A DNA stretch of 64,000 nt from Escherichia coli. GTDB taxonomy: Bacteria; Pseudomonadota; Gammaproteobacteria; Enterobacterales; Enterobacteriaceae. Below are positions 1 to 31,005 of this stretch, piece after piece. A program made the position numbers and the translations under genes. Below the pieces are notes generated by a model. That model had not been told where the DNA came from. It did no database searches and saw only the letters and a list, made by a program, of their open reading frames with translations. Each line of letters opens with the position of its first letter. Within the stretch, counting starts at the first letter, position 1. The stretch lies in NCBI RefSeq assembly GCF_024223415.1, contig NZ_CP100500.1. One strand, given 5' to 3'.

Positions 1-74
1 TTTGCAGTGGCATGAGGGCACCACTTTATATGTCAGAAAAGTTTCACTCTCCCGACATATTCTTACAAAACAAA

Positions 75-1178
75 TCAGAACTGATAAGTCAAACCAACAG
101 CGACAATATCATCGGTTAATACATCAGTTCTTTCAGTGAATTGATTCTTATCAAGCAGGTTGATTTTATAGTCTACGTATGTAGACATATTTTTGTTGAA
201 GTAATAAGCAGCACCGACTTCAATGAATTTTTCAATGTATCCGTCATTATGTTTTTCAGGGATACCAGTTTTGGTGGAAAGGTCTTTGGCTTTCGACTGG
301 ATATAAGCAAGAGACGGGCGCAAACCAAAGTCGAACTGATACTGTGCAACTACAGCGAAATCTTCAGTTTTATTGGCTACACCGTTGTAGCCGCCGGGCG
401 AGTACTTGATTGCGCGGGTATTACGTGTTTCACCATAAGTGGCTGCCAGGTACAGATTATTCGCGTCATATTTTACGCTGGTAGCCCACTGTTCAGCTTT
501 TTTACCTTTACCAAAAGTCGTCGCTTCCTGTGCATTGGTGCGATCGGCTGCACCATATGCAGCTACAAAACCAAAGCCTTCATATTCATAACTGACAGAG
601 CCGCCAACACCGTCGCCGTTTGAAGTGCCTGCATTGTCACGCTCATTTTTACCCAGATACTGAACCGCAAAGTTCAGTCCATCAACCAGACCGAAGAAGT
701 CGGTATTACGGTAAGTGGCAACACCACCTACACGACCCACGAAGAAGTTATCCCCGTTAACAGAACCAGGCCCAAATTCAGGGAGGACATCAGTATAGCT
801 TAATGCGTCATACACCACGCCATAGTTACGACCATAATCCAGAGAGCCAATATTTTCTAGTTTCAGGCCAGCGTATGCCAGACGGGTTTTGTCTCCTGCA
901 GAGCCATCTTTTTCTGCCTTGTTGCCTTTGAATTCATATTCCCATTGACCAAAACCAGTTAACTGATTGTTGATTTGGGTTTCACCTTTGAATCCAAGAC
1001 GGGCATAAGTTCCATCACCTTCTTCTTTGGCGTTAGAAGAAAAGTAATGTTTACCCACTACTTTGCCATATAAATCCAGTTTATTACTGTTTTTATTATA
1101 TATTTCTGCTGCATTTGCAGACATTGCCAGAAATACTGATGCTGCTACAGCAGAAAGTGCCACTGTTAAATTTTTCAT
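75..1178 (-). CDS. Outer-membrane porin, OmpC/OmpF/PhoE family (NmpC/OmpD-like prophage moron)
   Basis: 367 aa with signal peptide [23 protein letters not shown] and C-terminal beta-barrel ending GLTYQF; SD GAGGA 5 nt upstream; sits upstream of the lysis genes as nmpC does in DLP12. Confidence 0.9.
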
Positions 1179-1776
1179 TTTTTATCCTCTGGTGGGAGTT
1201 AATTGGACGACAAAATGCTATCAGGATGAAAATTTAATTTCTGTGTATAATGTATACAAGGAAAATTAAGGAGTCCGATTCTTTATATGTGACCACCATC
1301 ACAAAATAAGAAGTCATGCAAGCTAATAAATAGATGGCTATCTTTCACTCAAAAAATTAAGATCAATCTTTTTTATTAGAAGTGCTAAATATATTTAATT
1401 ATTTGGGGTTGTGAGTTATTTATATAACCTTAATAAAGACATTACTTTTGAAGAAAAATACGTGCATAGAAGAATGCATAATCTTTAATTACATCTTGCC
1501 AAGCGTCGCAACAATCCAGAGATTGTATGTGGGGTGAATCATGCAGCATGCAGGGTATGAACAAACACTTTACGATCGTAAAAGTATGCATATCATGGTA
1601 AGAGTGGTTCCTACGCCACACAACTTAAACCCGCAGCCAGGCGGTTTTTTACATCGAAAATCTGCACCGGACATTAAGCTCTTTGGCGGACCAGATAAGA
1701 GGTGCGCTTAGTTGGGTTTGTCGGGCTTTCTCTGAGATTTGCGGTATTAATCCCGTAACGTTATTATGCTGCTCGA

Positions 1777-1852
1777 GGCCCTTTAGCTCAGTGGTGAGAG
1801 CGAGCGACTCATAATCGCAAGGGCGCTGGTTCAAATCCAGCAAGGGCCACCA
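1777..1852 (+). tRNA. tRNA-Ile2 (anticodon CAT, lysidine type; ileX/ileZ-like)
   Basis: Cloverleaf with 7-bp acceptor ggccctt/aagggcc, D stem gctc/gagc, anticodon loop ctCATaa, T loop ttcaaat, encoded CCA; close to E. coli ileX. Confidence 0.85.
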
Positions 1853-1853
1853 A

Positions 1854-1927
1854 CCGCCACTAGCTCATCAGTACAGAGCATCAGCCTTCTAAGCAGACGG
1901 TGCGGGGTTCGAGTCCTCGGTGGCGGA
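1854..1927 (+). tRNA. tRNA-Arg (anticodon TCT)
   Basis: Acceptor ccgccac/gtggcgg, D stem gctc/gagc, anticodon loop ctTCTaa, T arm cgggg-ttcgagt-cctcg; one A-A mismatch in the anticodon stem; no encoded CCA. Confidence 0.75.
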
Positions 1928-1933
1928 TATCAT

Positions 1934-2009
1934 GCCGACTTAGCTCAGCAGGCAGAGCAGTTGATTTGTAATCATCAGGTCACCAGTTCGAACCCGGTAG
2001 TCGGCACCA
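1934..2009 (+). tRNA. tRNA-Thr (anticodon TGT), thrU-like, possibly slightly degenerate
   Basis: Acceptor gccgact/agtcggc plus ACCA, D stem gctc/gagc, anticodon loop ttTGTaa, T loop ttcgaac; one mismatch each in anticodon and T stems. Confidence 0.6.
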
Positions 2010-2040: not shown

Positions 2041-2404
2041 CATATCTGAACAATACAGCCGCTTTGTGCGGTTTTTTTCATTTGCACAACAGGTAAGAGT
2101 ATTGAATCCGCAGACCTCGCGGAACTGGTGAAAGGTGCCGCGCAGTGCTCTTATCGTTGTGGTGAAGCTCAATGGCGAGCTAGCAGATAGGCGACAGTGA
2201 AAATACTAGTCATGTATCTGACCGCCGCGCGTACTGCAATCGGCAGCGCACCGATGGAAGCCGGTTCGATTCCGGCCGCCACAACCCAAACTGAGCCGTA
2301 GCCACTGGCTGTCCTGAACTCCTCAGTGATAGTTACGCTGCGGCCTTCTTTTTCCCCTTCCTAATACAAGAACTACGCAATCCGTTACTGGCGGAGGCGT
2401 TGCT

Positions 2405-2620
2405 ATGAAATCCATGGATAAGATAACAACGGGTGTCGCCTATGGCACCTCGGCAGGCAGTGCCGGGTACTGGTTTTTGCAGTGGATTGATCAGGTCAGT
2501 CCGTCACAGTGGGCTGCTATTGGTGTGCTGGGGAGTCTGGCACTGGGCTTTCTGACTTATCTGACGAATCTGTACTTCAAAATAAGAGAAGACAAGCGTA
2601 AGGCTGCACGGGGAGAGTAA
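2405..2620 (+). CDS. S: Class II holin (pinholin, phage 21 S21-like) with dual-start motif
   Basis: 71 aa, [30 protein letters not shown]... matches S21 as recalled; two TM segments; SD GGAGG upstream; M1-K-S-M4 dual start. Confidence 0.9.
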
Positions 2621-2624
2621 TTCA

Positions 2625-3176
2625 ATGACTCAAAACTATGAACTGATTGTGAAAGGGATCCGCAATTTTGAGAATAAAGTTACGGTAACTTTAGCGTTAC
2701 GGGACAAAAAACGCTTTGACGGTGAAATTTTTGACCTGGACATCTCGCTGGACCGTGTTGAAGGTGCCGCGCTGGAGTTTTATGAGTCAGCAGCCAGAAG
2801 GAGCATCAGACAGGTCTTCCTGGATGTTGTTGCCGGGTTATGTGAAGGGGATGAGCAGTCGCCGGAAAAGCGCCCCGTAATTTTAGAGGCGCAGAATGTG
2901 TGGATAACCTACAAAGGAAAGCTACCGGGAAGAATTACTGGTTCTCTGAAGACGCCACCGACGGCATTGCGGTCAGAAAAAGATGATATTGAATCGCCCA
3001 TTGAAAAACTGGAGGGCAGCGTAGCTGATCTGAATAAAAAATTGTCGGTGCTGATCCCTTCTGAAGATGAAAAAAAACGCCGCGATGAGCAGTTTGCGGC
3101 GTTTTACGATTATTGCATTGAAGTTACTCGCAGGAATTTTGTGAAGATTTTTGAGGAGGGTAAATCTCTTCAGTAA
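2625..3176 (+). CDS. Hypothetical protein (moron inserted between holin and endolysin)
   Basis: 183-aa ORF starting 4 nt after the holin stop with SD GGGGAGAG; no family recognised; AT-richer than flanking lysis genes. Confidence 0.6.
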   Translation: MTQNYELIVKGIRNFENKVTVTLALRDKKRFDGEIFDLDISLDRVEGAALEFYESAARRSIRQVFLDVVAGLCEGDEQSPEKRPVILEAQNVWITYKGKLPGRITGSLKTPPTALRSEKDDIESPIEKLEGSVADLNKKLSVLIPSEDEKKRRDEQFAAFYDYCIEVTRRNFVKIFEEGKSLQ

Positions 3177-3384
3177 GCTTAATGGCGGACGCTGCAATTA
3201 ATTCAGGAAGGTCCGCAAGGTCATCTGTCAGTGGATATGATGAAAAATCGGCGGCAGTTCTGTTAAGAATCGCTTTAACTAATTCCTTTTCCTTCTCCGG
3301 CAACAAGTTGATTAGAGCTACGACTGCTTGCCTGAGTGCGATTAAATCAGCAAAAGTTTGTTTTGGTAGATTTGTGTAATCCAT
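3124..3384 (-). CDS. Hypothetical small acidic protein, convergent with and 3'-overlapping the previous ORF
   Basis: 86 aa from ATG at 3384 (MDYTNLPKQTF...) with SD GAGGTG 3 nt upstream; the six-frame ORF extends to 3507 but that part overlaps the endolysin start and lacks an RBS. Confidence 0.5.
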   Translation of the reverse strand: MDYTNLPKQTFADLIALRQAVVALINLLPEKEKELVKAILNRTAADFSSYPLTDDLADLPELIAASAIKLTEEIYPPQKSSQNSCE

Positions 3385-3497
3385 AGTCACCTCTGTGTTT
3401 ATCAGATTGACATCCTCCTCCCGCCAGTGCCCATCACTGGTGAGGTAAGATTTAACATATCCAGGGTTCAGAAACCGATAAATCCTGATAAATATCC

Positions 3498-4031
3498 ATG
3501 AGCGCAAAAATCAAATACGGCCTGTCAGCTGCTGTTCTGGCGCTGATTGCTGCAGGCGCGTCTGCTCCTCAAATACTTGACCAGTTTCTGGATGAAAAAG
3601 AGGGTAACCACACTACGGCATACCGCGATGGTTCCGGTATATGGACCATCTGTCGTGGTGCCACAATGGTGGATGGTAAGCCCGTCATACCGGGAATGAA
3701 GCTGTCGAAGGAAAAATGCGACCAGGTTAACGCTATTGAACGTGATAAGGCGCTGGCATGGGTGGAGCGCAATATTAAAGTACCACTGACCGAACCACAA
3801 AAAGCGGGTATAGCGTCATTCTGTCCCTATAACATTGGCCCCGGTAAGTGTTTCCCGTCGACGTTTTATAAGCGGCTTAATGCCGGTGATCGTAAAGGTG
3901 CCTGTGAGTCGATTCGCTGGTGGATTAAGGACGGTGGGCGTGATTGCCGCACACGTTCAAATAACTGCTACGGACAGGTTATTCGTCGTGACCAGGAAGC
4001 AGCACTTGTGTGCTGGGATATCGACAGATGA
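3498..4031 (+). CDS. R: SAR endolysin (phage lysozyme, R21-like)
   Basis: 177 aa; N-terminal signal-anchor LSAAVLALIAAGASAP followed by lysozyme-like motifs (EGNHTTAYRDGSGIWTICRG); paired with a pinholin. Confidence 0.9.
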   Translation: MSAKIKYGLSAAVLALIAAGASAPQILDQFLDEKEGNHTTAYRDGSGIWTICRGATMVDGKPVIPGMKLSKEKCDQVNAIERDKALAWVERNIKVPLTEPQKAGIASFCPYNIGPGKCFPSTFYKRLNAGDRKGACESIRWWIKDGGRDCRTRSNNCYGQVIRRDQEAALVCWDIDR

Positions 4032-4125
4032 GCAGAATATTTTGCTGAAAAATGACGTTGGCCAACGCGGACGGATAACACGATATTCGACATAAATGAA
4101 TTTAAATAGTGAATAAAAGCAGAAA

Positions 4126-4154
4126 CCCCGATTGTTGGTCGCAATCGGGGTTTT
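4126..4154 (+). terminator. Rho-independent terminator immediately downstream of R
   Basis: 9-bp stem ccccgattg/caatcgggg, 7-nt loop, then TTTT. Confidence 0.6.
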
Positions 4155-4216
4155 GTGTTTCTGGCAGTAAGTTATGGGAGGCTGCCTTGATTAATTTTAG
4201 CGGAGGAGACTGGATT

Positions 4217-4354
4217 GTGGAAGCTCTGAAATTGCTCGAAAGAAGTCCGGTTCTGAGAAGAATGTTTTATATAGCTCTTATAGTTATCGGAGCATTCGCC
4301 GTTGCGAAATCACTTCCGGGAATAGCTGAAATCATAAAGGCGCTGAATGCATAA
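4217..4354 (+). CDS. Small membrane protein (45 aa, GTG start), part of the insertion between R and Rz
   Basis: SD GGAGGA 9 nt upstream of GTG; one predicted TM helix MFYIALIVIGAFAVA; alternative ATG start at 4262. Confidence 0.35.
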   Translation: MEALKLLERSPVLRRMFYIALIVIGAFAVAKSLPGIAEIIKALNA

Positions 4355-4520
4355 AGAATACCTGGCTGAGGCTGACAAACAGGTCTCTGAATTGAAAGCT
4401 CCGGTAACCGATGACATCAGCGGAGCGGTGGCTTTTGCCATTAAGTGGGTGGCAGTCGGCGTTGCTATATCACCGGTACTGTATGGGCTGGCAAAGCTGG
4501 TTATTGCGTTGAAATCATAA
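4347..4520 (+). CDS. Small membrane protein (57 aa), start overlaps the stop of the previous small ORF
   Basis: MHKEYLAEADKQVSELK... with C-terminal TM helix AFAIKWVAVGVAISPVLYGLAKLVIAL; below the 60-aa cutoff of the ORF track. Confidence 0.4.
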   Translation: MHKEYLAEADKQVSELKAPVTDDISGAVAFAIKWVAVGVAISPVLYGLAKLVIALKS

Positions 4521-4583
4521 CTGTTACGGCCAGGTGATTCGTCGTGACCAGGAAAGTGCATTAGCCTGTTGGGGGATAGATCA

Positions 4584-5051
4584 GTGAGCAGAGTCGCCGC
4601 GATTATTTATGCTCTGGTTATCTGCATCATCGTCTGCCTGTCGTGGGCGGTCAATCATTACCGTGATAACGCCATCGCCTACAAAGAACAGCGTGATAAA
4701 AAAGTCAGTGAGCTGAAGCAGGCGACCGCCACCATTACTGACATGCAGCAACGCCAGCGTGCTGCTGATGTACTCGATGCTAAATACACGAAGGAGTTGG
4801 CTGATGCGAAAGCTGAAAATGATGCTCTTCGGCGCAAGCTTGATAATGGTGGTCGGGTGCTCGTCAAAGGAAAATGCCCTGTGCCATCCTCAGCCGAAAC
4901 CTCCAGCGCCTCCGGCATGGGCAATGATGCCACCGTCGAACTCTCTCCAGTTGCTGGACGAAACGTTCTCGGTGTCCGGGACGGAATTATCCGCGACCAA
5001 ACAGCACTGAGAACGCTTCAGGAATACATCAGGACGCAATGCCTTCGATGA
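4584..5051 (+). CDS. Rz: Rz i-spanin
   Basis: GTG start, [40 protein letters not shown]... closely matches lambda Rz as recalled; N-terminal TM anchor. Confidence 0.85.
4804..5010 (+). CDS. Rz1: Rz1 o-spanin lipoprotein, embedded in the +1 frame of Rz
   Basis: [21 protein letters not shown]... with lipobox VVGC and proline-rich mature part; entirely inside Rz. Confidence 0.8.
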
Positions 5052-5546: not shown

Positions 5547-5741
5547 TTATTCATCATCTCTTTGGATTGATGTATATGCTCTCTTTTCTGACGTTAGTCT
5601 CCGACGGCAGGCTTCAATGACCCAGGCTGAGAAATTCCCGGACCCTTTTTGCTCAAGAGCGATGTTAATTTGTTCAATCATTTGGTTAGGAAAGCGGATG
5701 TTGCGGGTTGTTGTTCTGCGGGTTCTGTTCTTCGTTGACAT
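5547..5741 (-). CDS. YlcI/YnfO-family small protein (DUF3950, ribbon-helix-helix-like)
   Basis: 64 aa with motif NIRFP...NFSAWV..AC; paralogous to the ORF at 63486-63683; this family sits before the terminase genes in DLP12 and Qin. Confidence 0.7.
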   Translation of the reverse strand: MSTKNRTRRTTTRNIRFPNQMIEQINIALEQKGSGNFSAWVIEACRRRLTSEKRAYTSIQRDDE

Positions 5742-5899
5742 GAGGTTGCCCCGTATTCTGTGTCGCTGATTTGTATTGTCTGAAGTTGTTTTTACGTTAA
5801 GTTGATGCAGATCAATTAATACGATACCTGCGTCATAATTTATTATTTGACGTGGTTTGATGGCGTAGATGCACGTTGTGACATGTAGATGATAATTAT

Positions 5900-6060
5900 T
5901 ATCATTTTGCGGGTCCTTTCCGGCATGTGGACCCGTTACGGGGCGTCGACCTCGCGGTTTTTCGCTATTTATGAGATTTTTTGAGGGGGTGGTTGTTGTT
6001 TAATTGTTTGGTATATCTAATTGATAAGTAAGGTGAAAATAAAATAAATACAACAACCTT
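5900..6060 (+). other. cos site (cosN cohesive-end sequence at 5941-5952, flanked by cosQ and cosB regions)
   Basis: gttacg|GGGCGTCGACCT|cgcggtttttcgctatttatga matches the lambda cos sequence GGGCGGCGACCTCGCGGGTTTTCGCTATTTATGA with one mismatch in the 12-nt overhang. Confidence 0.75.
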
Positions 6061-6168
6061 ACGATGTGCTTTGATGTCATTAATGTGAAAAAATTAAATG
6101 ATATCAAATGGTTTTGTAAAAACACATGGTTGTTGTATCGCTTTTTATCGATGACTTATGGAGAGGAG

Positions 6169-6675
6169 ATGGCCTTTTTATTGAATAAAAGTGATATGGC
6201 CTCCTCCATCGGTATCTCTGTTCAGGCATTTGATAAATGGGGCGTTCCTCCTGTCGAGCGTCGGGGGAGGGAAGTTTTTTATGACGTTAAAACTGTACTG
6301 GAGATAGATCGCGAGCGGCGACAACACAATCATAGAACACCTGATGACGGGGGCGATCTGGAGGAAAGGCTGCTTCGGGCCAGAGCTGAACTGACAGAAG
6401 AACAGGCCGTAGCTCAAAAACTTAAAAATCAGGTAACCGAAGGTAAGCTCATCGATTCAGACTTCTGCGTTTTCGCCCTCAGCAAGCTGGCAATGGCGTT
6501 ATCCAGTACGCTTGATTCCATCCCTTTATCCATGCAACGACAGTTTCCTGATTTAACACCGCGCCATCTTGACCATCTGAAAACCCTTATTGCGAAGGGG
6601 GCAAATCAGTGTGCGCGGGCAGGGGATAAATTACCGGATTTACTCGATGAATATATCAGAGCAACAACTGAATAA
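6169..6675 (+). CDS. Nu1: Terminase small subunit (Nu1-like)
   Basis: N-terminal HTH region NKSDMASSIGISVQAFDKWGVPP aligns with lambda Nu1; exact start uncertain (6151, 6169 or 6196 all in frame). Confidence 0.8.
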   Translation: MAFLLNKSDMASSIGISVQAFDKWGVPPVERRGREVFYDVKTVLEIDRERRQHNHRTPDDGGDLEERLLRARAELTEEQAVAQKLKNQVTEGKLIDSDFCVFALSKLAMALSSTLDSIPLSMQRQFPDLTPRHLDHLKTLIAKGANQCARAGDKLPDLLDEYIRATTE

Positions 6676-8575
6676 TATGATGAGTGCTGTCACAACAGCA
6701 TTACAGCCCCTGATAAGGGCATTGCCGGTGACGGCAGTTGAATGGGCTGACCAGTATTATTATCTGCCTAAAGAATCCTCATACGGTGACGGCGAATGGA
6801 AAACGCTGCCGTTCCAGATCGCCATCATGAACAGTATGGGTAATGACCTGATCCGCACTGTTAATCTGATTAAATCTGCCCGTATTGGTTATACAAAGAT
6901 GTTGCTGGGGGTGGTCGGGTATTTTATTGAGCATAAATCCCGAAACAGTCTGCTTTTTCAGCCCACGGATTCTGCCGCTGAAGATTTTATGAAGTCTCAC
7001 GTGGAGACGACGATTAGGGACGTGCCATGCCTGAAAGACCTTTCCCCATGGCTGGGTCGTAAACATCGTGATAATACCCTCACGCTGAAACGCTTTTCAT
7101 CGGGCGTCGGTTTCTGGTGCCTGGGCGGCGCTGCCGCCAAAAACTACCGTGAAAAATCCGTGGACGTGGTCTGCTATGACGAACTCTCATCGTTTGAACC
7201 TGATGTTGAAAAAGAGGGCTCGCCAACCCTGCTGGGGGATAAGCGTATTGAGGGCTCTGTATGGCCAAAATCCATTCGCGGCTCGACGCCTAAAATCAAA
7301 GGCTCCTGCCAGATCGAAAAAGCCGCTAACGAGTCGGCACATTTCATGCGTTTTTATGTGCCCTGTCCGCACTGTGGGGAGGAGCAGTATCTGAAATTTG
7401 GTGATGATGCCTCGGCTTTCGGTCTTAAGTGGGAGAAGAATAAGCCAGAAAGTGTTTTCTACCTTTGTGAGCATCATGGCTGTGTGATCCATCAGTCTGA
7501 GCTTGACCAGAGTAACGGGCGGTGGATCTGTGAAAACACGGGGATGTGGACCCGTGACGGTCTGACGTTTTTCAGCGCCCGGGGTGATGAAATTCCGCCG
7601 CCGCGCTCCATCACTTTCCATATCTGGACGGCGTACAGTCCGTTCACCACCTGGGTACAGATAGTCTATGACTGGCTGGATGCACTGAAAGATCCCAACG
7701 GCCTGAAAACCTTTGTGAACACCACGCTGGGCGAGACCTGGGAAGAGGCCGTGGGCGAAAAACTCGATCACCAGGTACTGATGGATAAGGTTGTGCGTTA
7801 CACGGCGGCGGTGCCTGCCCGGGTGGTTTATCTGACGGCGGGCATTGACTCGCAGCGAAACCGTTTTGAGATGTATGTCTGGGGATGGGCTCCGGGAGAG
7901 GAAGCCTTTCTGGTGGATAAAATCATCATTATGGGACGTCCCGATGAGGAAGAGACGCTGTTACGTGTGGATGCGGCGATCAACAAAAAATACTGCCATG
8001 CAGACGGAACCGAAATGACCATTTCCCGTGTCTGCTGGGACATCGGGGGGATCGATGGCGAAATCGTTTATCAGAGGTCAAAAAAACACGGTGTTTTCCG
8101 GGTGCTGCCGGTAAAAGGCGCATCTGTCTATGGCAAGCCGGTGATCACCATGCCAAAAACCCGCAATCAGCGGGGCGTGTATCTGTGTGAAGTGGGGACG
8201 GACACCGCAAAAGAAATTCTCTATGCCCGTATGAAAGCCGCTCCCACGCCTGCGGATGAATCCACGTCGTATGCCATCCGTTTTCCTGATGATCCGGAGA
8301 TTTTTTCGCAGACAGAGGCGCAGCAACTGGTCGCGGAAGAGCTTGTGGAGAAGTGGGAAAAAGGAAAGATGCGTCTGCTGTGGGATAACAAAAAGCGGCG
8401 TAACGAAGCGCTGGACTGCCTGGTGTATGCCTACGCGGCATTACGTGTGTCCGTGCAACGCTGGCAGCTTGATCTGGCTGTACTGGCAAAATCCCGGGAA
8501 GAAGAGACGACCCGGCCAACCCTTAAAGAACTGGCAGCGAAGCTGTCCGGAGGAGTGAATGGTTACAGTCGCTGA
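6647..8575 (+). CDS. A: Terminase large subunit (gpA-like)
   Basis: 642 aa; MNISEQQLNN...TAVEWADQYYYLPKESSYGDGEWKTLPFQIAIMNSMG closely parallels lambda gpA. Confidence 0.95.
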   Translation: MNISEQQLNNMMSAVTTALQPLIRALPVTAVEWADQYYYLPKESSYGDGEWKTLPFQIAIMNSMGNDLIRTVNLIKSARIGYTKMLLGVVGYFIEHKSRNSLLFQPTDSAAEDFMKSHVETTIRDVPCLKDLSPWLGRKHRDNTLTLKRFSSGVGFWCLGGAAAKNYREKSVDVVCYDELSSFEPDVEKEGSPTLLGDKRIEGSVWPKSIRGSTPKIKGSCQIEKAANESAHFMRFYVPCPHCGEEQYLKFGDDASAFGLKWEKNKPESVFYLCEHHGCVIHQSELDQSNGRWICENTGMWTRDGLTFFSARGDEIPPPRSITFHIWTAYSPFTTWVQIVYDWLDALKDPNGLKTFVNTTLGETWEEAVGEKLDHQVLMDKVVRYTAAVPARVVYLTAGIDSQRNRFEMYVWGWAPGEEAFLVDKIIIMGRPDEEETLLRVDAAINKKYCHADGTEMTISRVCWDIGGIDGEIVYQRSKKHGVFRVLPVKGASVYGKPVITMPKTRNQRGVYLCEVGTDTAKEILYARMKAAPTPADESTSYAIRFPDDPEIFSQTEAQQLVAEELVEKWEKGKMRLLWDNKKRRNEALDCLVYAYAALRVSVQRWQLDLAVLAKSREEETTRPTLKELAAKLSGGVNGYSR

Positions 8576-8765
8576 ACTGCAGGCGCTGCGTCAGGCGCGC
8601 CTTGATTTATTAACCGGTAAACGGGTGGTGTCTGTCCAGAAAGATGGTCGCAGAATTGAATATACGGCGGCTTCTCTGGATGAGCTTAACCGGGCGATCA
8701 ATGATGCGGAGTCGGTACTGGGGACAACCCGACGTCGCCGTCGTCCGCTGGGAGTGAGGTTATGA
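8559..8765 (+). CDS. W: Head-tail joining protein W
   Basis: 68 aa, ...LTGKRVVSVQKDGRRIEYTAASLDEL... resembles lambda gpW; SD GGAGG. Confidence 0.9.
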   Translation: MVTVAELQALRQARLDLLTGKRVVSVQKDGRRIEYTAASLDELNRAINDAESVLGTTRRRRRPLGVRL

Positions 8766-10354
8766 AAAGAACGCCTGTCCTGATTGATGTGAACGGCGTT
8801 CCGCTTCGTGAGAGTCTCAGCTACAACGGGGGCGGCGCAGGATTTGGCGGGCAAATGGCGGAGTGGTTGCCACCGGCGCAGAGTGTCGATGCGGCCCTGC
8901 TGCCCGCGTTGCGTCTGGGGAATGCCCGGGCAGATGATCTGGTGCGCAATAACGGAATAGCGGCTAATGCGGTGGCCCTGCATAAGGATCACATAGTCGG
9001 GCATATGTTTCTGATCAGCTACCGTCCGAACTGGCGCTGGCTGGGGATGCGGGAGACCGCAGCAAAAAGCTTTGTCGATGAGGTGGAGGCGGCCTGGTCG
9101 GAATACGCCGAAGGGATGTCTGGCGAGATCGACGTGGAAGGAAAACGCACGTTCACGGAATTTATCCGGGAAGGCGTGGGCGTTCATGCGTTTAACGGCG
9201 AAATCTTTGTGCAGCCGGTCTGGGATGCGGAGACTACGCAGCTGTTTCGTACGCGTTTTAAAGCCGTGAGTCCGAAACGGGTGGACACGCCAGGATACGG
9301 TTTGGGGAACCGCTTTCTGCGGGCCGGGGTGGAGGTCGATCGGCATGGACGGGCCGTTGCGTACCATATCTGTGAGGATGATTTTCCGCTCTCTGGTAGT
9401 GGACGATGGGAACGGATCCCGCGTGAACTTCCCACCGGGCGTCCGGCCATGCTGCATATTTTCGAGCCGGTTGAGGACGGGCAGACCCGTGGGGCTAATC
9501 AGTTTTACAGCGTCATGGAACGGCTGAAAATGCTCGATTCCCTGCAGGCAACACAGCTTCAGTCAGCCATAGTGAAGGCGATGTATGCAGCGACGATTGA
9601 AAGTGAACTTGATACCGAAAAGGCCTTTGAATATATCGCCGGTGCGCCGGAGGGGCAGAAGGATAATCCGCTTATTAATATTCTGGAGAAGTTCTCCAGC
9701 TGGTATGACACGAATAACGTGACACTGGGCGGTGTCAAAATTCCGCACCTTTTCCCCGGTGATGATCTGAAACTACAGACTGCGCAGGATTCAGACAATG
9801 GATTTTCTGCGCTTGAACAGGCGCTGCTGCGGTATATCGCCGCCGGTCTTGGCGTTTCCTACGAACAGTTGTCCCGTGATTACTCGAAGGTCAGCTATTC
9901 AAGTGCCCGCGCCTCCGCCAATGAGTCGTGGCGCTATTTTATGGGGCGGCGAAAATTTATTGCGGCCCGGCTGGCCACGCAGATGTTTTCCTGCTGGCTG
10001 GAAGAGGCTCTTCTGCGGGGGATTATTCGTCCGCCACGGGCGCGTTTTGATTTTTATCAGGCGCGTTCATCCTGGTCACGGGCAGAGTGGATTGGAGCCG
10101 GAAGAATGGCCATTGACGGGCTCAAGGAGGTCCAGGAATCGGTGATGCGCATTGAGGCCGGACTGAGCACGTATGAGAAAGAGCTGGCGCTGATGGGTGA
10201 GGATTATCAGGACATTTTCCGCCAGCAGGTCAGGGAATCTGCAGAGCGGGAAAAAGCCGGACTCTCACGTCCGGTGTGGATAGCGCAGGCGTATCAGCAG
10301 CAGATAGCGGCGAGTCGCAGGCCGGAAGAGGAGACAACACCACGTGAGACGTAA
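8762..10354 (+). CDS. B: Portal protein (gpB-like)
   Basis: 530 aa, lambda-B length and position; start overlaps the W stop. Confidence 0.9.
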   Translation: MKRTPVLIDVNGVPLRESLSYNGGGAGFGGQMAEWLPPAQSVDAALLPALRLGNARADDLVRNNGIAANAVALHKDHIVGHMFLISYRPNWRWLGMRETAAKSFVDEVEAAWSEYAEGMSGEIDVEGKRTFTEFIREGVGVHAFNGEIFVQPVWDAETTQLFRTRFKAVSPKRVDTPGYGLGNRFLRAGVEVDRHGRAVAYHICEDDFPLSGSGRWERIPRELPTGRPAMLHIFEPVEDGQTRGANQFYSVMERLKMLDSLQATQLQSAIVKAMYAATIESELDTEKAFEYIAGAPEGQKDNPLINILEKFSSWYDTNNVTLGGVKIPHLFPGDDLKLQTAQDSDNGFSALEQALLRYIAAGLGVSYEQLSRDYSKVSYSSARASANESWRYFMGRRKFIAARLATQMFSCWLEEALLRGIIRPPRARFDFYQARSSWSRAEWIGAGRMAIDGLKEVQESVMRIEAGLSTYEKELALMGEDYQDIFRQQVRESAEREKAGLSRPVWIAQAYQQQIAASRRPEEETTPRET

Positions 10355-19542: not shown

Positions 19543-20240
19543 TGCAGGATATCCGGCAGGAAACACTGAATGAATGCACCCGTGCGGAGCAGTCGGCCAG
19601 CGTGGTGCTCTGGGAAATCGATCTGACAGAGGTCGGTGGAGAACGTTATTTTTTCTGTAATGAGCAGAACGAAAAAGGTGAGCCGGTCACCTGGCAGGGG
19701 CGACAGTATCAGCCGTATCCCATTCAGGGGAGTGGTTTTGAACTGAATGGCAAAGGCACCAGTACGCGCCCCACGCTGACGGTTTCTAACCTGTACGGTA
19801 TGGTCACCGGTATGGTGGAAGATATGCAGAGTCTGGTCGGCGGAACGGTGGTCCGGCGTAAAGTTTATGCCCGTTTTCTGGATGCGGTGAACTTCGTCAA
19901 CGGAAACAGTGACGCCGATCCGGAGCAGGAGGTTATCAGCCGCTGGCGCATCGAGCAGTGCAGTGATTTGACAGCGGTCAGCGCGACCTTTGTACTGGCC
20001 ACGCCGACGGAAACGGACGGCGCTGTTTTTCCGGGACGTATCATGCTGGCCAACACCTGCACCTGGACCTATCGCGGCGATGAGTGCGGTTATAGCGGTC
20101 CGGCTGTCGCGGATGAATATGACCAGCCAACGTCCGATATCACGAAGGATAAATGCAGCAAATGCCTGAGTGGCTGTAAGTTCCGCAATAACGTCGGCAA
20201 CTTTGGCGGTTTTCTTTCCATTCACAAACTTTCGCAGTAA
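19542..20240 (+). CDS. L: Minor tail protein L
   Basis: 232 aa, lambda L size; C-terminal Cys cluster. Confidence 0.9.
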   Translation: MQDIRQETLNECTRAEQSASVVLWEIDLTEVGGERYFFCNEQNEKGEPVTWQGRQYQPYPIQGSGFELNGKGTSTRPTLTVSNLYGMVTGMVEDMQSLVGGTVVRRKVYARFLDAVNFVNGNSDADPEQEVISRWRIEQCSDLTAVSATFVLATPTETDGAVFPGRIMLANTCTWTYRGDECGYSGPAVADEYDQPTSDITKDKCSKCLSGCKFRNNVGNFGGFLSIHKLSQ

Positions 20241-20244
20241 TTCC

Positions 20245-20988
20245 ATGACAGAGACAGAATCAGCGATTCTGGCGCACGCCCGGCGATGTGCGCCAGCGGA
20301 GTCGTGCGGCTTCGTGGTGAGAGCGCCGGAGGGGGAAAGATATTTCCCCTGCGTGAATATCTCCGGTGAGCCGGAGGCGTATTTCCGGATGTCGCCGGAG
20401 GACTGGCTGCAGGCAGAGATGCAGGGTGAGATTGTGGCGCTGGTCCACAGTCACCCCGGTGGTCTGCCCTGGCTGAGTGAGGCCGACCGGCGGCTGCAGG
20501 TGCAGAGTGATTTGCCGTGGTGGCTGGTCTGCCGGGGGGCGATTCACAAGTTCCGCTGTGTGCCGCATCTCACCGGGCGGTGCTTTGAGCACGGGGTGAC
20601 GGACTGTTACACGCTGTTCCGGGATGCTTACCATCTGGCGGGAATTGAGATGCCGGATTTTCATCGCGGGGATGACTGGTGGCGTAACGGTCAGAATCTC
20701 TATCTTGACAATATGGAGGCGACTGGTTTTTACCGTGTCGCACTGACAGAGGCGCAGCCCGGCGACGTGCTGCTGTGCTGTTTTGGTTCATCGGTGCCGA
20801 ATCATGCCGCCATTTACTGCGGCGACGGCGGGCTGCTGCACCATATTCCTGAACAACTGAGCAAACGAGAGAGGTATACCGACAAATGGCAGCGACGCAC
20901 ACACTCCCTCTGGCGTCACCGGGCATGGCACGCATCTGCCTTTACGGGGATTTGCAACGATTTGGCCGCCGCATCGACCTTCGTGTGA
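20245..20988 (+). CDS. K: Tail assembly protein K (NlpC/P60 plus JAB-like domains)
   Basis: MTETESAILAHARRCAPAESCGFVV... matches lambda K as recalled. Confidence 0.9.
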   Translation: MTETESAILAHARRCAPAESCGFVVRAPEGERYFPCVNISGEPEAYFRMSPEDWLQAEMQGEIVALVHSHPGGLPWLSEADRRLQVQSDLPWWLVCRGAIHKFRCVPHLTGRCFEHGVTDCYTLFRDAYHLAGIEMPDFHRGDDWWRNGQNLYLDNMEATGFYRVALTEAQPGDVLLCCFGSSVPNHAAIYCGDGGLLHHIPEQLSKRERYTDKWQRRTHSLWRHRAWHASAFTGICNDLAAASTFV

Positions 20989-25383: not shown

Positions 25384-27198
25384 ATGGCGGCTGTAAAAAT
25401 TTCAGGCGTGCTGAGGGACGGAACCGGAAAACCGGTACCGGGATGCATTATTGAGCTGAAAGCGAAGAGAACCAGCGAGACAGTCATCGCCACGACAGTG
25501 GCTTATGGCATGCCGGAAGAGACGGGGAGTTACAGTATGGATGTGGAGCCAGGAATATACAGGGTGACACTCAATACAGAAGGTTACCGTCCTTCGTATG
25601 TGGGAGATATCGTGGTCAGGGAGGATTCTTCACCGGGAACACTGAATAAATTTCTGATGGAGATGGAAGATGCTCCTTATTATCCGAAGGCGTTGTCAGA
25701 GCTGGAGGCTGTGGTGCAGTCCATACTGCACAGAGCAGAGTCCGCGGCATCTGAGGCGGAGGAAGCCCGGAAACGAGCTGCATCTGCCCGGGGACCACGA
25801 GGAGAGAAAGGGGATACTGGTGCTCGTGGTGAAAGAGGCATTACCGGGCCACAGGGGCCAAAAGGTGAAACAGGAGCACGTGGCCCGGCAGGACCACAGG
25901 GACCAAAAGGTGAAACAGGTGAACGCGGTCCGGCAGGTCCACAGGGACTAAAGGGCGATACAGGTGAACGCGGCCCGGCAGGTCCACAGGGACCAAAGGG
26001 TGAAACAGGTGCACGCGGCCCGGCAGGTCCACAGGGAGCAAAGGGCGAAACAGGTGAACGCGGCCCGGCAGGTCCACAGGGAGCAAAGGGCGAAACAGGT
26101 GCACGTGGTCCGGAAGGCCCTCAGGGTCTGAAGGGAGAAAAGGGTGAGCGAGGAGAAAAAGGCCCTAAGGGGGATAAAGGAGATCCGGGAGGTCCACAGG
26201 GACCAAAGGGGGATACAGGTGAACGCGGCCCGGCAGGTCCACAGGGATCAAAGGGCGATACAGGTGAACGTGGCCCGGCAGGTCCTCAGGGACCAAAGGG
26301 GGATACAGGTGAACGTGGCCCGGAAGGTCCACAGGGAGCAAAGGGTGAAACAGGTGAACGCGGCCCGGCAGGACCACAGGGACCAAAAGGTGAAACAGGT
26401 GAACGCGGTCCGACAGGTCCACAGGGAGCAAAAGGTGAAACAGGAGCACGCGGTCCGGCAGGTCCTCAGGGACCAAGAGGAGAGTCAGCCCGTGGACAAC
26501 TGCTGAATGGTGATCTGAACCGACTGGGACGAGTGACCGATCAGGGTGATTATTATCAGCCATCAGACAGTGGGGCTACACGAGAAAATAATTATCCGAT
26601 TCAGAGAGCGGGTTATCTTCAGGTAAGAGTTGGTGCATGGGGATATTGCCAGCATGAATATACAACCTGGAACCCACCACGAAAGTTCGTAAGAACTGTT
26701 ACTGGTAATTTTACCGGTAATGGCCCCTGGTCTGAATGGAAAGAGCTGGGAGCCCAGGGGGAGCGTGGTCCACAGGGACCAAAAGGTGAAACAGGTGCAC
26801 GCGGTCCGGCAGGTCCACAGGGGCCAAGAGGGTATACAGGTGAACGCGGGCAGACAGGTCTACAGGGGCCAAGAGGGTATACAGGTGAACGCGGTCCGGC
26901 AGGTCCACAGGGGCCAAGAGGAGAAGCGGGGCGGCCAGCGAGCGTCGGAAGTGTTTATTCCGTGGGGTCTTATGTTCTGGGGATCATAGAACGAAATCAT
27001 GAGATAACAAATACCCGTCAAATACCCGGGTATCGTATCAGACAGGCCGTTATTGTGTCGTCGTCATCGGATAAACTTACAGATATCCGCTTTTTATTTG
27101 GCAATCCTATGCTTGGTACATGGATGTTATGCACAACTAACATGACGGTGAATAATATCATTGGGACGATTTGGGGCCTGTTTCAGAGAATACGGTGA
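25384..27198 (+). CDS. stf: Side tail fibre protein with collagen-like Gly-X-Y repeats (Stf N-terminus)
   Basis: N-terminus [29 protein letters not shown] resembles lambda Stf; then long runs of [16 protein letters not shown]. Confidence 0.85.
25790..26490 (+). repeat. Collagen-like (Gly-X-Y)n coding repeats inside stf; second block at ~26750-26935
   Basis: Tandem 27-bp units encoding [16 protein letters not shown] and variants; these create spurious ORFs in other frames. Confidence 0.85.
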
Positions 27199-27212
27199 CA
27201 GGGGAGAAATGA

Positions 27213-27788
27213 ATGAAGGTCGATAAAATCACGTCACCAGTGTGGGCTGACAGGGGTCATACGACCATAAACTGTATAGTGAAGTTTTCAGACGCGGAAA
27301 CAGAATGTGTATTTACAGCAAGTGCGGATGATCCTGAGTCTTACGGTCGTGAAATATTTGAAGCCTGCATAAGAGGTGATGCAGGGCCGGTAGGTGAGTA
27401 CCGGGCAAATGATGATATGGCTGTGGAAGAAGCACGCAGGATGAAAAACGCGGAGATAAATGCCTGGCGTGATGCGATGGAGGCGTCAGGGTATGTTTTT
27501 GAGCACAGAGGACGGAAATGGGATTATGGAAAGGAAACCATGACACGTCTTGGAATGTCGGCATCAGCGGCCAGAGGCGGTGTGTTGCCGGAAGGATTTT
27601 TCTGGACGGACGCAGAGAATAATGATGTACCGATGACGGCAGATGAACTGATATCCCTGAGTGATGCTGCTGGTAAAGCGATGTTCAGGAAAGGCCTTGA
27701 AATACATATAAGGCAAAGGGAGATGAAAAAGGCAATAGCAGAACTGAGTGACAGTGAAACCATTCTGGCGTACAGGGTTGGATGGTGA
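27213..27788 (+). CDS. Hypothetical protein downstream of stf (possible tail-fibre assembly or accessory protein; not lambda Tfa-like)
   Basis: 191 aa with SD GGGGAG; sits where tfa would be but lacks the Tfa sequence pattern. Confidence 0.6.
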   Translation: MKVDKITSPVWADRGHTTINCIVKFSDAETECVFTASADDPESYGREIFEACIRGDAGPVGEYRANDDMAVEEARRMKNAEINAWRDAMEASGYVFEHRGRKWDYGKETMTRLGMSASAARGGVLPEGFFWTDAENNDVPMTADELISLSDAAGKAMFRKGLEIHIRQREMKKAIAELSDSETILAYRVGW

Positions 27789-28534
27789 AACTGATAAAAA
27801 AACCCCTCTGAAAATTCTGTCAGAGGGGGGCAAGGATCTATATTTATTATGCAGTAATGCTTTCACTCCGGTAATTAATTTCCGTGATTAACTGCTTTCG
27901 ATCAATAAAGGAATTGCAAAAAGGTGATCTTGTTCACGACATCGTGGATGATAATATGCCTGATGTCTGAATCCGGAAACAGTGATCTGGCGGGTTTCAT
28001 GTGAAGTTGACGGATAAAAAAATCCGCACGACCAGACAGACGTGCGGTTTACGAAATTCGTAACAAGAGGCTTTTCTACGGATCACGTGGTGCGTGCCAC
28101 GTGAAATTTTTGTAGCGCAAAATGTGTAATGTGTAAATACAAGGAAGGAAAAAGTTAAATCGGTGGAAGTCCATGCCTGCCACATGTATGTCTGCATTCC
28201 TCGTTTTGAACAGAATTCTCACCAGACATCGTGAATTTCTCATTCAATCATCAGAGATATTAACCAGGATTTTTATTGTTTTGTGATATCAGCAGTGCAG
28301 GTATACAGACATTAAAGTAATCAGGTTTATTATAACCACCTTTACAAAGTTGTATGTGTTTATAATTTAAGGATTTTAATCCCAGTCGTTTTCTGCTGCT
28401 TAAATTGAGGGCGCATATTATACACAATAATATTCCTGGCATTATTAAATTAATAAAAGAGGATTCTTATCACTGTATTTTTGCTCCGCACTACCGTTCT
28501 GGCTGGTGAAGTAATAATACAGGAGAATAACAGA

Positions 28535-29644
28535 ATGCTTAAAAGACGTGATGCTTTTTTAAAGAAAAGCGCGCTGGCAGTGAGTGTGGCCCTGCTGCTC
28601 TCATCTCAGGCTTCGGCTCATAAAACAATTACTGATTCAACGGCGGGTATTATCTGGATTGATGGTGGCGGTCAGTCACTTGAAAAAGTAGCTGTGATTG
28701 ACCGTCAACTAAATGATACAGGATATAATTTTGCCGTAGGTAGTGGTGCAGCAATTCTGGATGCGGATAAATCCATGGCAACAGGAAATAATACAGCTGT
28801 TTTTAATGCAGACAACAGTGTCGCTCTGGGGTATGGCTCTCAGGTGAATGGAGAAAGCAATGTACTTTCTGTAGGGGCCGGTCCTTCAGGATATGGATTT
28901 TCAGTTGATGGTGCACCGGAAACCCGCCGGATTATAAATGTTTCAGATGGTGTTAAGGATAGTGATGCGGCCACAAAAGGACAGATGGACAACGCCATTG
29001 CAGATGCTGTACGGGAGTCGGGGGATGCCCTGCGCGGTGAGATAGGAGCTGTCTACCGTGATGCTGTTGCTGATGCTAAGAGTCGAGTGGAATCGGCAGA
29101 AAACAGACTTAACGGTAATATTACAGCTGCCAGGGCTTCTGCGCAGGAATACACGGATGCGGTGAAGTCGGATGTTCTGGACGAGACGCGTACATATACA
29201 GACAGCAGTGTGCGTACTGTCCGTAACGAGGTGAAAAGCCAGGCAGAACATCTCAGCGATGTGCTTGTGAAGAACAGGGCGCAGACGGATGCAGCAATAG
29301 CCTCAAATACAGCAGCGATAAGGAATAACAGTCATCGTCTGGATTTGACGGAAGCCTGGCAGAAGATGGCGACAGAGAGAATGAATAATATGCAGGAGCA
29401 GATTAAAGAGAACCGGAAGGAGTTAAGGGAGAGTGCAGCCCAGAGCGCGGCACTGGCCGGTCTTTTCCAGCCATACAGTGTTGGAAAATTTAACGCGACA
29501 GCAGCCGTTGGTGGTTACCGTGATGAGCAGGCCATTGCGGTGGGCGTGGGCTACCGTTTCACAGAGAATGTGGCAGGAAAAGTTGCAGTTGCTGCAGGTG
29601 GGTCATCCGCATCGTGGAATGCTGGTGTGAATTTTGAGTTCTGA
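28535..29644 (+). CDS. Trimeric autotransporter adhesin, YadA-like (Eib-family-like)
   Basis: Signal peptide, head/neck motifs (INVSDGVKDSDAATKGQMDNAIAD), coiled-coil stalk and C-terminal anchor ending AGVNFEF; SD AGGAGA. Confidence 0.8.
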   Translation: MLKRRDAFLKKSALAVSVALLLSSQASAHKTITDSTAGIIWIDGGGQSLEKVAVIDRQLNDTGYNFAVGSGAAILDADKSMATGNNTAVFNADNSVALGYGSQVNGESNVLSVGAGPSGYGFSVDGAPETRRIINVSDGVKDSDAATKGQMDNAIADAVRESGDALRGEIGAVYRDAVADAKSRVESAENRLNGNITAARASAQEYTDAVKSDVLDETRTYTDSSVRTVRNEVKSQAEHLSDVLVKNRAQTDAAIASNTAAIRNNSHRLDLTEAWQKMATERMNNMQEQIKENRKELRESAAQSAALAGLFQPYSVGKFNATAAVGGYRDEQAIAVGVGYRFTENVAGKVAVAAGGSSASWNAGVNFEF

Positions 29645-29704
29645 CAGGTCAGGATTTAGATATCTGTCCCGGGGGAGTCCCCCGGGATATAATGAGGTAC
29701 AGAG

Positions 29705-30160
29705 ATGCTGGATATAATCCTGGCGACGAGAGATATTTATTTTGAAAAAGCCCTGCGAGAGATATTTGGAACCGTAAGCAGTCGAATCAGATATATAGAA
29801 GATGCCATATCAGACAGAAGAAGGGTGCAGTCAGGCAGGTCATTCAGATATTATTTTGTATTCTGTGATGATGAGTATACAGATATTGTTCGTATTCTTT
29901 TTACCGGAGAGGCCTGCTGTATTCTGAATAAGTCGATGCTGAATCTGAGAGCGGCCGGAGGTGTGTTGACGCTGGAAGAGCGCAGAGCGGTACTGAACCG
30001 GTATTACAGAGGTTTAAGTATTGCGGAGATTACAGAAGAGACGGGGCAGAATGACAAGACGGTATACGGTCATCTTCGTCGTGCACTGCAGCGGTCTGGA
30101 TTCCGGAAGGGGCGTTTTATAAAGGGGAGAGAAGCTGCGGGGGATTCAGGTGTTGAATAA
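29705..30160 (+). CDS. Putative transcriptional regulator with sigma-70 region-4/LuxR-type HTH
   Basis: C-terminal LTLEERRAVLNRYYRGLSIAEITEETGQNDKTVYGHLRRALQR; preceded by palindrome cccgggggagtcccccggg. Confidence 0.6.
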   Translation: MLDIILATRDIYFEKALREIFGTVSSRIRYIEDAISDRRRVQSGRSFRYYFVFCDDEYTDIVRILFTGEACCILNKSMLNLRAAGGVLTLEERRAVLNRYYRGLSIAEITEETGQNDKTVYGHLRRALQRSGFRKGRFIKGREAAGDSGVE

Positions 30161-30543
30161 TGTATCTTATATTGTGATATCGGTGCTGCTGCTGTTATTT
30201 TTTGTTGTATTTGTGACGAATGGTTAAGAATAAAACATGAGCTGGTGATTATCAGGACAGGTTGCTTGTATATGAAGATAACAAAGGCGGCATTTATTTT
30301 TGCGCTGTCAGTGTGGAGTGTTGCTGTGATATGTCTTTTATTATTTGTACTGGTTGTTCTGGGATAGCTATAGTGGAATTATTATTTTTTTAAGACTATG
30401 GTTTATATTTTTATTCGGCAATATTTCTGTAAACAATTAAATATCAGAAAGGCGTGTTGTATGCGTGAACACGCCTGAGTATGTATACAGAGATTGTTAA
30501 TTTGGAGAGAATAATTACAGTTGTTATTTATTTGACGTCCTGA

Positions 30544-30792
30544 TTAGTGAAAAAACCAGTCATCAGCAGTTTCCCAGACTTCCTGCAGCGTTTCCTGTAT
30601 GAACTTCTGAGCGTTTTCTTTATCTACGGCTCTTAAAATGGTCAGTCCGTCATTACTGGCGGATTTTACTATAACCTCCACATCGTCATATCGTTTTCTG
30701 ATACGGCGAGACATTTCCTGTTGTAGAGCAGGTACAGAGCCTTTTGGCATTTTGCTGAATTTTTCTTTAGCGATACAGATCTCAACACGCAT
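30544..30792 (-). CDS. DinI-like protein
   Basis: 82 aa [16 protein letters not shown]...[14 protein letters not shown] resembles DinI; SD GGAGGG. Confidence 0.85.
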
Positions 30793-31005
30793 AACCCCCT
30801 CCTGTAACTGTAGTTATGTACAGGTGTTATTTTTAGCTGTGTGGATAACCAGTGTCAATTGGTAATATTGCCTATGGGGCATGTATGGGACACTTTTTAT
30901 CGGCGAAATCCGTCGAAGTTCGTCGACATCGAAAACGAATCATCTGTCCAACCCTTGAAAAATGGCGCTCCTGGACGATCTTCGTCGATTTTTAAAAATG
31001 TTGCG

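Follow-up and report, generated by a model that had tools for sequence, protein, structure and literature searches.

A prophage cos site in Escherichia coli with probable N15/Monarch-type packaging specificity, a rare overhang allele and a satellite-type spacer

The cos site described here belongs to a lambdoid prophage of an E. coli host and lies in the left part of the 64,000-nucleotide stretch of DNA that we analysed, hereafter the window. Gene order across the site is that of lambda, running lysozyme-Rz-ylcI-cos-terS-terL-W-portal, and the head and tail ORFs that follow are full-length and in lambda order up to ~27.8 kb. The prophage ends at ~30.9 kb, and just 5.9 kb of its other arm falls inside the window. 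The features of the locus are collected in Table 1, where signed positions are counted from the cohesive end's initial base. The small terminase gene, terS, starts at +229 with GGAGAGGAG upstream of its ATG. Its product is 48% identical overall to N15 gp1, with a near-identical N-terminal winged helix-turn-helix, and 99% identical to the TerS of EC332, a lambdoid prophage that is the closest relative of the one in the window. A PDB sequence search with TerS returned no match at E<=0.01. The large subunit, TerL, shares 66% identity with N15 gp2 across 639 aa.

Table 1. Features of the cos region and its neighbours, with mismatch counts to a sibling prophage (O121 RM8352) and a satellite (GF4) for four consecutive segments.
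Feature	Position	Relative to first overhang base	Strand	Remarks
Lysozyme and Rz-like genes	3498-5051
ylcI/DUF3950 gene	5547-5741		-
Segment left of cosQ	5701-5907			mismatches 3/207 vs O121 RM8352 prophage, 156/207 vs GF4 satellite
Core segment	5908-5960			mismatches 10/53 vs O121 RM8352 prophage, 0/53 vs GF4 satellite
Segment with cosB	5961-6145			mismatches 8/185 vs O121 RM8352 prophage, 7/185 vs GF4 satellite
Segment right of R1	6146-6200			mismatches 1/55 vs O121 RM8352 prophage, 42/55 vs GF4 satellite
cos module, cosQ through R1	5905-6141		+	97.9% over 237 bp to E. coli GF4 island
Entire cos	~5911-6136
cosQ (GGGTCCT), packaging-termination subsite	5911-5917	-30..-24	+	same distance as in lambda
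cosQ-cosN spacer patch, satellite (PICI) type	5925-5934		+	ATGTGGACCC here vs GATCCGACAG in phages
cosN	5941-5952		+	nicks predicted by lambda analogy at 5940/5941 (+ strand) and 5952/5953 (- strand)
Right flank of cosN	5953-5981	+13..+41	+	26/29 identical to lambda, 26/29 to phage 21
R3-like putative TerS box	5991-5999	+51..+59	+	GGTTGTTGT, same motif as N15 R3 (N15 bp 50-58)
I1-like candidate IHF site	6014-6026	+74..+86	-	TATCAATTAGATA, one mismatch to WATCAANNNNTTR; A/T-rich tract beside it
R2-like putative box	6050-6058	+110..+118	-	reads ACAACAACC on the + strand; orientation opposite to R3
R1-like putative box	6128-6136	+188..+196	+	GGTTGTTGT; ~35 bp to the right of its place in lambda or phage 21
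terS, Nu1 family, N15-type winged helix-turn-helix	6169-6675		+	Pfam Phage_Nu1 1e-20
terL, gpA family	6647-8575		+	GpA_ATPase 5.6e-54, GpA_nuclease 2.9e-70; 29-nt overlap with terS
gpW-like head-tail joining gene	8559-8765		+	Pfam gpW 1.2e-22
Lambda-family portal gene	8762-10354		+	Phage_portal_2 1.1e-99

The initial annotation placed a cos site here with an overhang differing from that of lambda at one position, and alignment to lambda cos bore this out: the 12-mer GGGCGTCGACCT shares 11 of 12 bases with lambda GGGCGGCGACCT, the sole difference being G6->T (hereafter T6). Taken by itself the 12-mer is a weak marker. A search of the window at up to 2 mismatches gave 3 matches where 5.0 were expected, which is not above chance, and at up to 1 mismatch the expectation was 0.28 matches per window. 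A second one-mismatch copy at 45066, inside a 1,210-aa host ORF and lacking cosQ or cos flanks, was rejected as a clear chance match. The identity of the site is certain because its flanks and gene context match those of known cos regions. The 282 bp from 5700 to 5981 align at 92-95% identity (E ~1e-112) with their counterparts around cos in lambda, DE3, HK629/630, 434 and numerous lambdoid phages of E. coli, and the exact spacing of cosQ is retained, leaving the probability that the 12-mer is a chance resemblance negligible. We conclude that the window holds a real lambda-family cos site, and that cos-type packaging with fixed, predicted ends stands. By analogy with lambda, the virion ends are predicted to lie at 5940/5941 on the top strand and 5952/5953 on the bottom strand.

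The immediate surroundings of the overhang are conserved. The cosQ heptamer is identical at 7/7 positions to those of lambda, phage 21, PhiR12_1, EC332 and the O121 prophage, and the hexamer directly left of the predicted nick, GTTACG, matches lambda at 6/6. CG dinucleotides at 5939-5940 and 5953-5954 bracket both predicted nicks, and the T6 substitution generates a SalI site (GTCGAC) at 5945-5950. The conserved stretch to the right of cosN overlaps most of the phage 21 IHF site I2 (+30..+44, as annotated in M81255). A PICI-like island starts at ~60.7 kb in the same window. No second cos, for this island or otherwise, came from a search of the window for cosQ, which gave only the copy at 5911.

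Further to the right the resemblance to lambda stops. The sequence flanking the overhang had been described as cosB-like and conserved, and this part of the description fails, as homology ends at ~5981 (+41), before R3. Between +42 and +228, 52/187 positions (28%) are shared with lambda and 51/187 with phage 21, which is background level. The lambda R-box consensus, written as CGTTTCC.TTCT or CGTTTCC(G/T)TTCT, was not found in cosB of the window, where the boxes are GGTTGTTGT. This motif occurs five times in the 64-kb window against 0.59 expected. As shown in Table 1, three copies fall within cosB as putative TerS boxes, and the R2-like and R3-like boxes form a perfect inverted repeat. A copy at 5706-5714 was considered as an R4-type box and rejected: it occupies the identical place in lambda, whose R sequence differs, and is therefore conserved ylcI-region sequence and no element of cos. 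The R boxes of lambda begin at +53 (R3, plus strand), +109 (R2, minus strand) and +154 (R1, plus strand), and those of phage 21 at +50, +107 and +150. The coordinates of R3 and R2 in the window match these values, and both boxes therefore sit in canonical places and orientations.

Between R3 and R2 lies the candidate IHF site, which coincides with the annotated I1 in phage 21 (+72..+86) and takes in the midpoint between the two boxes (+84.5). Matches to the IHF consensus with one mismatch are common in AT-rich DNA (70 in the window against 58 expected), and the site stands as a candidate; its conservation among relatives is described below. No rR2-like box was present at up to 1 mismatch within 6137-6700, a span that covers the whole of terS. 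The span first annotated, 5900-6060, reaches from cosQ through cosN, R3 and the IHF-like site to R2; it leaves out R1. Together, these features indicate a cosB that has the R3-I1-R2-R1 layout of lambda, its I1 a candidate, made from the R sequence of N15.

Lambda-like phages fall into three packaging specificities, those of lambda, 21 and N15 (PMC4669245), and the anatomy of the site bears directly on which of these the prophage would have. The features shared with lambda comprise the place of cosQ, the GTTACG hexamer, 11/12 bases of the overhang, 26/29 bases from +13 to +41, R boxes in plus, minus and plus orientation, and the terS-terL-W-portal gene order. If the site had lambda specificity, a lambda-like cosB would be recognised by a lambda-type Nu1; the conserved overhang, cosQ and right flank, as well as the match of TerS to Pfam Phage_Nu1, agree with this. 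However, only 28% of the bases from +42 to +228 are those of lambda, the boxes are GGTTGTTGT, and the recognition helix of TerS reads ISVQAFDKWGV, as in N15 gp1, where lambda has IRTIQNWQEQG. N15 specificity is documented as a separate one, and N15-specific DNA is no substrate for packaging by lambda terminase (PMC4669245). Since both the R-box sequence and the TerS helix are unlike those of lambda, the expected specificity differs, and we consider lambda specificity very unlikely. The earlier proposal of packaging by a Nu1/A terminase thus survives in part: Nu1-family and gpA-family genes are intact beside cos, but the lambda-like recognition that it implied is replaced by boxes and a helix of N15 type. 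R1 and the start of terS also lie ~35-39 bp further right than in lambda, and the cosQ-cosN spacer matches lambda at 9/17 positions. Phage 21 (M81255, annotated with R4/I2/R3/I1/R2/R1/I0) has the same order and coordinates of subsites (R3 at +50, I1 at +72..86, R2 at +107), an identical cosQ and an overhang that agrees at 11/12 bases, as does that of lambda. It differs in its R boxes, which are of the TGTCGG/CCGACA type, and in its TerS helix, VDPRTIERWQSQ.

N15 itself (NC_001901) has the same box at ~+50, GGTTGTTGT(TTAAT), and the same TerS helix as the window; the box with its flank, GGTTGTTGTTTAAT, is at +51 in the window and +50 in N15. The extent of N15 R3, bp 48-59, was delimited by mutagenesis (PMC4669245). 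The cosB of N15 is simple, with R3 only, gene 1 at +89 and rR2 inside gene 1 (ACTACAACC at 250), whereas in the window R3 is followed by an I1-like site, R2 and R1, with terS at +229 and no rR2. The overhang of N15, GGGCGGCGTCCG, differs from that of lambda at bp 9 and 12, and that of the window at bp 6. A group of prophages termed Monarch has been reported to combine the N15 R3 and recognition helix with three R boxes, an IHF site and no rR2 (PMC4669245). As described (Feiss et al. 2015, PLoS One 10:e0141934; Virology 482:260), Monarch sites have the R3 of N15, an N15 helix, and the series R3, inverted R2 and R1 with an IHF site separating the first two; they lack rR2, and their cosQ and cosN resemble those of lambda. 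The window shows each of these features, the IHF site as a candidate. Neither G6->T nor the satellite-type spacer of the window is mentioned for Monarch. We file the site as Monarch-type because its R boxes, recognition helix, candidate IHF site and lack of rR2 match the published description; the likeness is to that verbal description. On these grounds, 5911-6136 is very probably the cos of a lambdoid E. coli prophage with N15 packaging specificity and a complex, Monarch-type cosB.

The same arrangement is found in a wider family. A scan of IMG/VR for the R3 region, with the pattern CGCTATWTATGA N14-16 GGTTGTTGTTTAAT, returned 52 loci. These split in two. Complex loci have three boxes, which lie at +50/51, +109/110 and +187/188, and in simple loci of the N15 type there is R3 only, with terS at ~+89. 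In 29 distinct complex sites there is little or no variation in cosQ, G1, G2, C11, R1 and the TTGAT.AA core, while the DNA between them drifts. More specifically, GGGTCCTT is invariant, as are G-1, G1, G2, C11 and C13 around the overhang, and the TTGAT.AA core of the candidate IHF site is largely conserved. R1 is also invariant, though it lies outside both the search pattern and the filter.

From this anatomy, and by analogy with lambda, a course of packaging can be proposed. In it, dimeric TerS would bind the inverted R3 and R2 boxes, joined by an IHF-induced bend at ~6014-6026, with R1 playing an accessory part. Bound TerS would then anchor TerL over cosN, where nicks staggered by 12 nt are predicted at 5940/5941 and 5952/5953, and the virion left end would open with the overhang 5'-GGGCGTCGACCT. 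If cosQ acts as in lambda, it would signal the downstream cos cut that ends each round of packaging. The site as a whole would probably be active.

The T6 overhang is a rare allele. To count it independently of the spacer, we used the 30-mer at 5935-5964, searched for exactly in a set of complete genomes of E. coli, 5,426 in number. It was present in 7 of the 4,644 E. coli records that have a lambda-like cos (10,389 places), and an exact T6 23-mer was absent from 100,044 GTDB species-representative genomes, one per species. Three IMG/VR contigs, L006-L008, also carry it. Six of the seven E. coli carriers were examined, and five of these proved to be PICIs of the type of EcCICFT073, the sixth being the sibling prophage EC332, whose cosB is identical to that of the window at 187/187 positions. 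EcCICFT073 is the archetypal E. coli PICI; it has two cos sites and codes for a capsid as well as a head-decoration homologue (PMC6092414). The five PICI carriers (GF4, Ch1, AR_0085, 135 and B771) are ~10-kb int-alpA-primase/helicase-capsid-decoration islands without terminase genes, and T6 PICIs occupy three chromosomal sites, roxA/phoQ, allC and yejO. In PKF11 and PKF4, T6 is found in a satellite with its own TerS. The allele is thus heritable and no error, judging from its presence in several records and elements.

Whether T6 is compatible with packaging is a separate matter. The left half of the overhang is reported to be under selection, and mutations there can be severe, as with G2C, which lowers yield ~10-fold (PMC4669245). 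As a left-half change, T6 could lower the efficiency of cutting. One explanation is therefore that the site is an inactive relic, in which G6->T and a foreign spacer reflect decay in a cryptic prophage and inefficient cutting. The selection reported on the left half (PMC4669245), the great rarity of the allele (7/4,644 E. coli records and none of the GTDB species representatives), the frameshifted terL of the sibling prophage in O121 RM8352 and the position of most of the left arm beyond the window would all fit such decay. However, every cos subsite is intact, as are terS, terL, W and portal, and other members of the family tolerate much larger changes to the overhang, left half included. T6 is also present in PICIs at three sites and in a second prophage lineage, an unlikely spread for an allele dead for packaging. 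We regard a relic as unlikely. Because T6 persists in a number of mobile elements reliant on packaging, we infer that it is functional.

EcCICFT073-family PICIs (Fillol-Salom 2018, 2019; Murialdo & Feiss 2022) have a lambda-like cosQ and cosN, as in the window, and the GF4, Ch1 cos2, AR_0085, 135, B771 and L006 islands further share its Monarch-type cosB and T6. The cos1 of EcCICFT073 has a spacer of the CATATGGACCC family, as in the patch at 5925-5934, but its cosB is Rpp-specific with rpp at +102. The site in the window is bordered by phage lysis genes and by a terS and terL of its own. EcCICFT073-type cos sites, unlike that of the window, lie in ~10-kb int-alpA-primase-capsid-decoration islands without terminase genes. 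As shown in Table 1, similarity along the region switches between the sibling prophage and the GF4 satellite from one segment to the next, and in a comparison of the whole window 5905-6141 was the sole similarity to the GF4 island in the prophage part. The cos module thus acts like a portable cassette within a pool common to phages and satellites.

Given a 53-bp core that is 100% identical to the GF4 PICI and 98% identity over 5905-6141, the site might be that of a PICI lodged here within the prophage, which would then not own it. We found no satellite genes that would go with it. The DNA that precedes cosQ is of lambda type, from ylcI and the right arm (3/207 mismatches to the sibling), the cognate terS follows R1 (1/55 mismatches), and both flanks are unrelated to the satellite. 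In place of the PICI-type setting, a terminase-less int-alpA-rep-capsid/decoration island, lysis genes and ylcI lie to the left of the site, and to its right come terS, terL, W and portal. A nested PICI is therefore extremely improbable, and we take the site as that of the prophage.

Within the core, the satellite-type sequence has a narrow location. Seven of the ten mismatches to the O121 sibling in 5908-5960 fall at 5925-5929, 5933 and 5934, inside the spacer between cosQ and cosN. Spacers of the form CAT[AG]TGGACCC are otherwise seen only in satellites, namely GF4, Ch1 cos1, PKF11, L010/L023/L054/L056 and EcCICFT073 cos1. We considered the entire 5908-5960 core, T6 included, as one satellite import and rejected this, as EC332, the closest prophage, has T6 next to a spacer of the ordinary phage type, CGATCCGACAGG. 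T6 and the spacer therefore have separate histories, with T6 going with the overhang-plus-cosB side. Only the spacer can be called satellite-type, as a separate patch at 5925-5934. Most parsimoniously, a satellite was the source of the spacer, which the phage acquired through a short conversion tract with the homologies at cosQ and cosN as its limits. More generally, the patterns compared here point to a cos core that is shuffled by recombination in a pool common to lambdoid phages and satellites.

A bolder reading, which we put forward tentatively and consider possible though doubtful, is that the cos module at 5905-6141 is a cassette that moves between lambdoid helpers and EcCICFT073-family satellites, with the cos2 of the satellites serving as a packaging site matched to a helper and the prophage of the window acting as a natural helper of Monarch specificity. 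This cos2 is the second, inverted site of the satellites and has no role in transfer mediated by lambda or phi80; it is of PhiR12 type in CFT073 and of Monarch/N15 type in Ch1, AR_0085, 135, B771 and L006. Some islands, such as GF4, may use such a site alone, without Rpp, and the chimeric core of the window, with its satellite spacer and T6, may be a scar of traffic between helper and satellite.

The newness of the site is modest: it falls in the Monarch/N15 class, its overhang has a rare allele in the left half, and its chimeric core is common to satellites. For the phage, the virion ends can now be annotated by prediction and the specificity class corrected, so that it should package N15/Monarch-type and not lambda-type DNA. 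Specificity class decides which resident prophages and satellites the phage can mobilise or be disrupted by. For the study of packaging, the window supplies a natural cosN allele in the left half (G6->T), at a position where changes are regarded as unusual. The comparisons also give the subsites of cos (left flank, spacer, and overhang plus cosB) separate histories, at base resolution, that are common to phages and PICIs. Should the cassette reading be true, cos2 as a helper-matched site would account for the two cos sites of EcCICFT073-type islands, and the set of helpers expected to spread these virulence-associated islands would be wider.

Through the G-to-T change at the sixth overhang position (T6 in place of the canonical G6), the cohesive-end sequence gains a site for SalI (GTCGAC), and SalI cutting is a handy restriction diagnostic for both the T6 allele and annealed cos. 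Two further cos-like matches in the window were weighed and rejected. A fourth copy of the R box GGTTGTTGT stands at a place where lambda carries the identical sequence, and we therefore regard it as coincidental coding sequence rather than a cos box. The second match, GGGCGGCGAACT, is the lambda overhang with one mismatch. Because it falls within a 1,210-aa host ORF, and neither cosQ nor cos flanks were found around it, we consider it a chance match. Positions are collected in the table, where gene labels for the prophage right end were taken from the annotation of close relatives.

Positions of cos-related and neighbouring features in the window and compared loci
Feature	Sequence	Position	Remark
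tRNA cluster, three genes	window	1777-2009	Met-CAT, Arg-TCT, Thr-TGT; upstream of prophage lysis genes
Fourth GGTTGTTGT copy	window	5706-5714	within ylcI/DUF3950 gene
SalI site	window	5945-5950	made by G6 to T
Prophage right end	window	27000-30860	tail-fibre, DUF4376, YadA-like, sigma-factor-like HTH and DinI-like genes
GGGCGGCGAACT match	window	45066-45077	host ORF 42029-45661, minus strand
PICI-like island	window	60700-64000	integrase-led; adjoins rcnR
cos and frameshifted terL	O121 RM8352 (L004)	2298-3851	canonical G6
Short cosQ-cosN spacer	L007	7500-7555	GGCATGTGGA-CCGTTACG
T6 cosN core, then satellite terS	PKF11 (L060)	886-1600	184-aa TerS
cos pair	CFT073 (L067)	19559-19570 (+) and 20298-20309 (-)	
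cos pair	Ch1 (L059)	886-927 (+) and 1676-1716 (-)	

EC332 excepted, the closest complete-genome sibling of the window prophage is that of E. coli O121 RM8352. Its cos has the canonical G6, but this copy is probably defective, since its terL is frameshifted. For the terS of this genome, RefSeq places the start 27 nt later than the ATG, preceded by an SD sequence, that was adopted for the window analysis.

Among relatives from IMG/VR, nine loci with Monarch-type complex sites (L016, L017, L021, L022, L028, L030, L038, L039 and L053) have intact cosQ and R boxes. If the nick positions are assumed to be unchanged, the sequence at the overhang position is strongly divergent in all nine, including in its left half (GGTCGGTGGACG, GGTGCGTATACC, GGTCAGAGGACG, GGTCTGTAGACG), which is at odds with the published view that selection acts on the left half of cosN. 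Of the two IMG/VR relatives that are nearly identical to the window, L007 has a spacer between cosQ and cosN that is shorter by 1 bp, either a true spacing variant or an assembly error.

Satellites of the EcCICFT073 family carry a convergent pair of cos sites, cos1 and an inverted cos2. The cosB at cos1 is of the Rpp type, and a gene resembling rpp lies at about +102; cos2 has a full tripartite, phage-style cosB whose type differs between islands: PhiR12_1-type in CFT073, with boxes CATGTCCGG, and Monarch/N15-type in Ch1, AR_0085, 135, B771 and L006. In GF4, the cos1 slot holds a Monarch-type site and rpp is absent. The publications consulted on this family state no more than that cos2 is dispensable in lambda- and phi80-mediated transfer and that a lambda cosB was not found. 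The capsid/decoration satellite of E. coli PKF11 encodes its own TerS, with an N15-like variant helix (SATAFDKWGV), and has boxes GGTGGTGGT and CACCAACC where Monarch-type sites have GGTTGTTGT; these boxes may represent an additional packaging specificity.

No stx-sized ORF was found between the tRNA genes and the lysozyme gene of the window prophage. After about 30.86 kb the core chromosome of E. coli begins, which most genomes share at 99% identity, and the large ORFs beyond presumably belong to the yeh gene region, judging by ORF sizes. The island at the window end follows, as far as it is covered, the same order as the left end of PICI satellites of the GF4/EcCICFT073 type, its remainder, including any cos, lying beyond 64000. 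Its integrase shares 68.6% nucleotide identity with theirs, and patches within 63160-63859 are 81-100% identical to their left end. With this island and a Monarch-type prophage in the same window, one chromosome may therefore hold both a helper prophage and a PICI-like satellite, about 30 kb apart.
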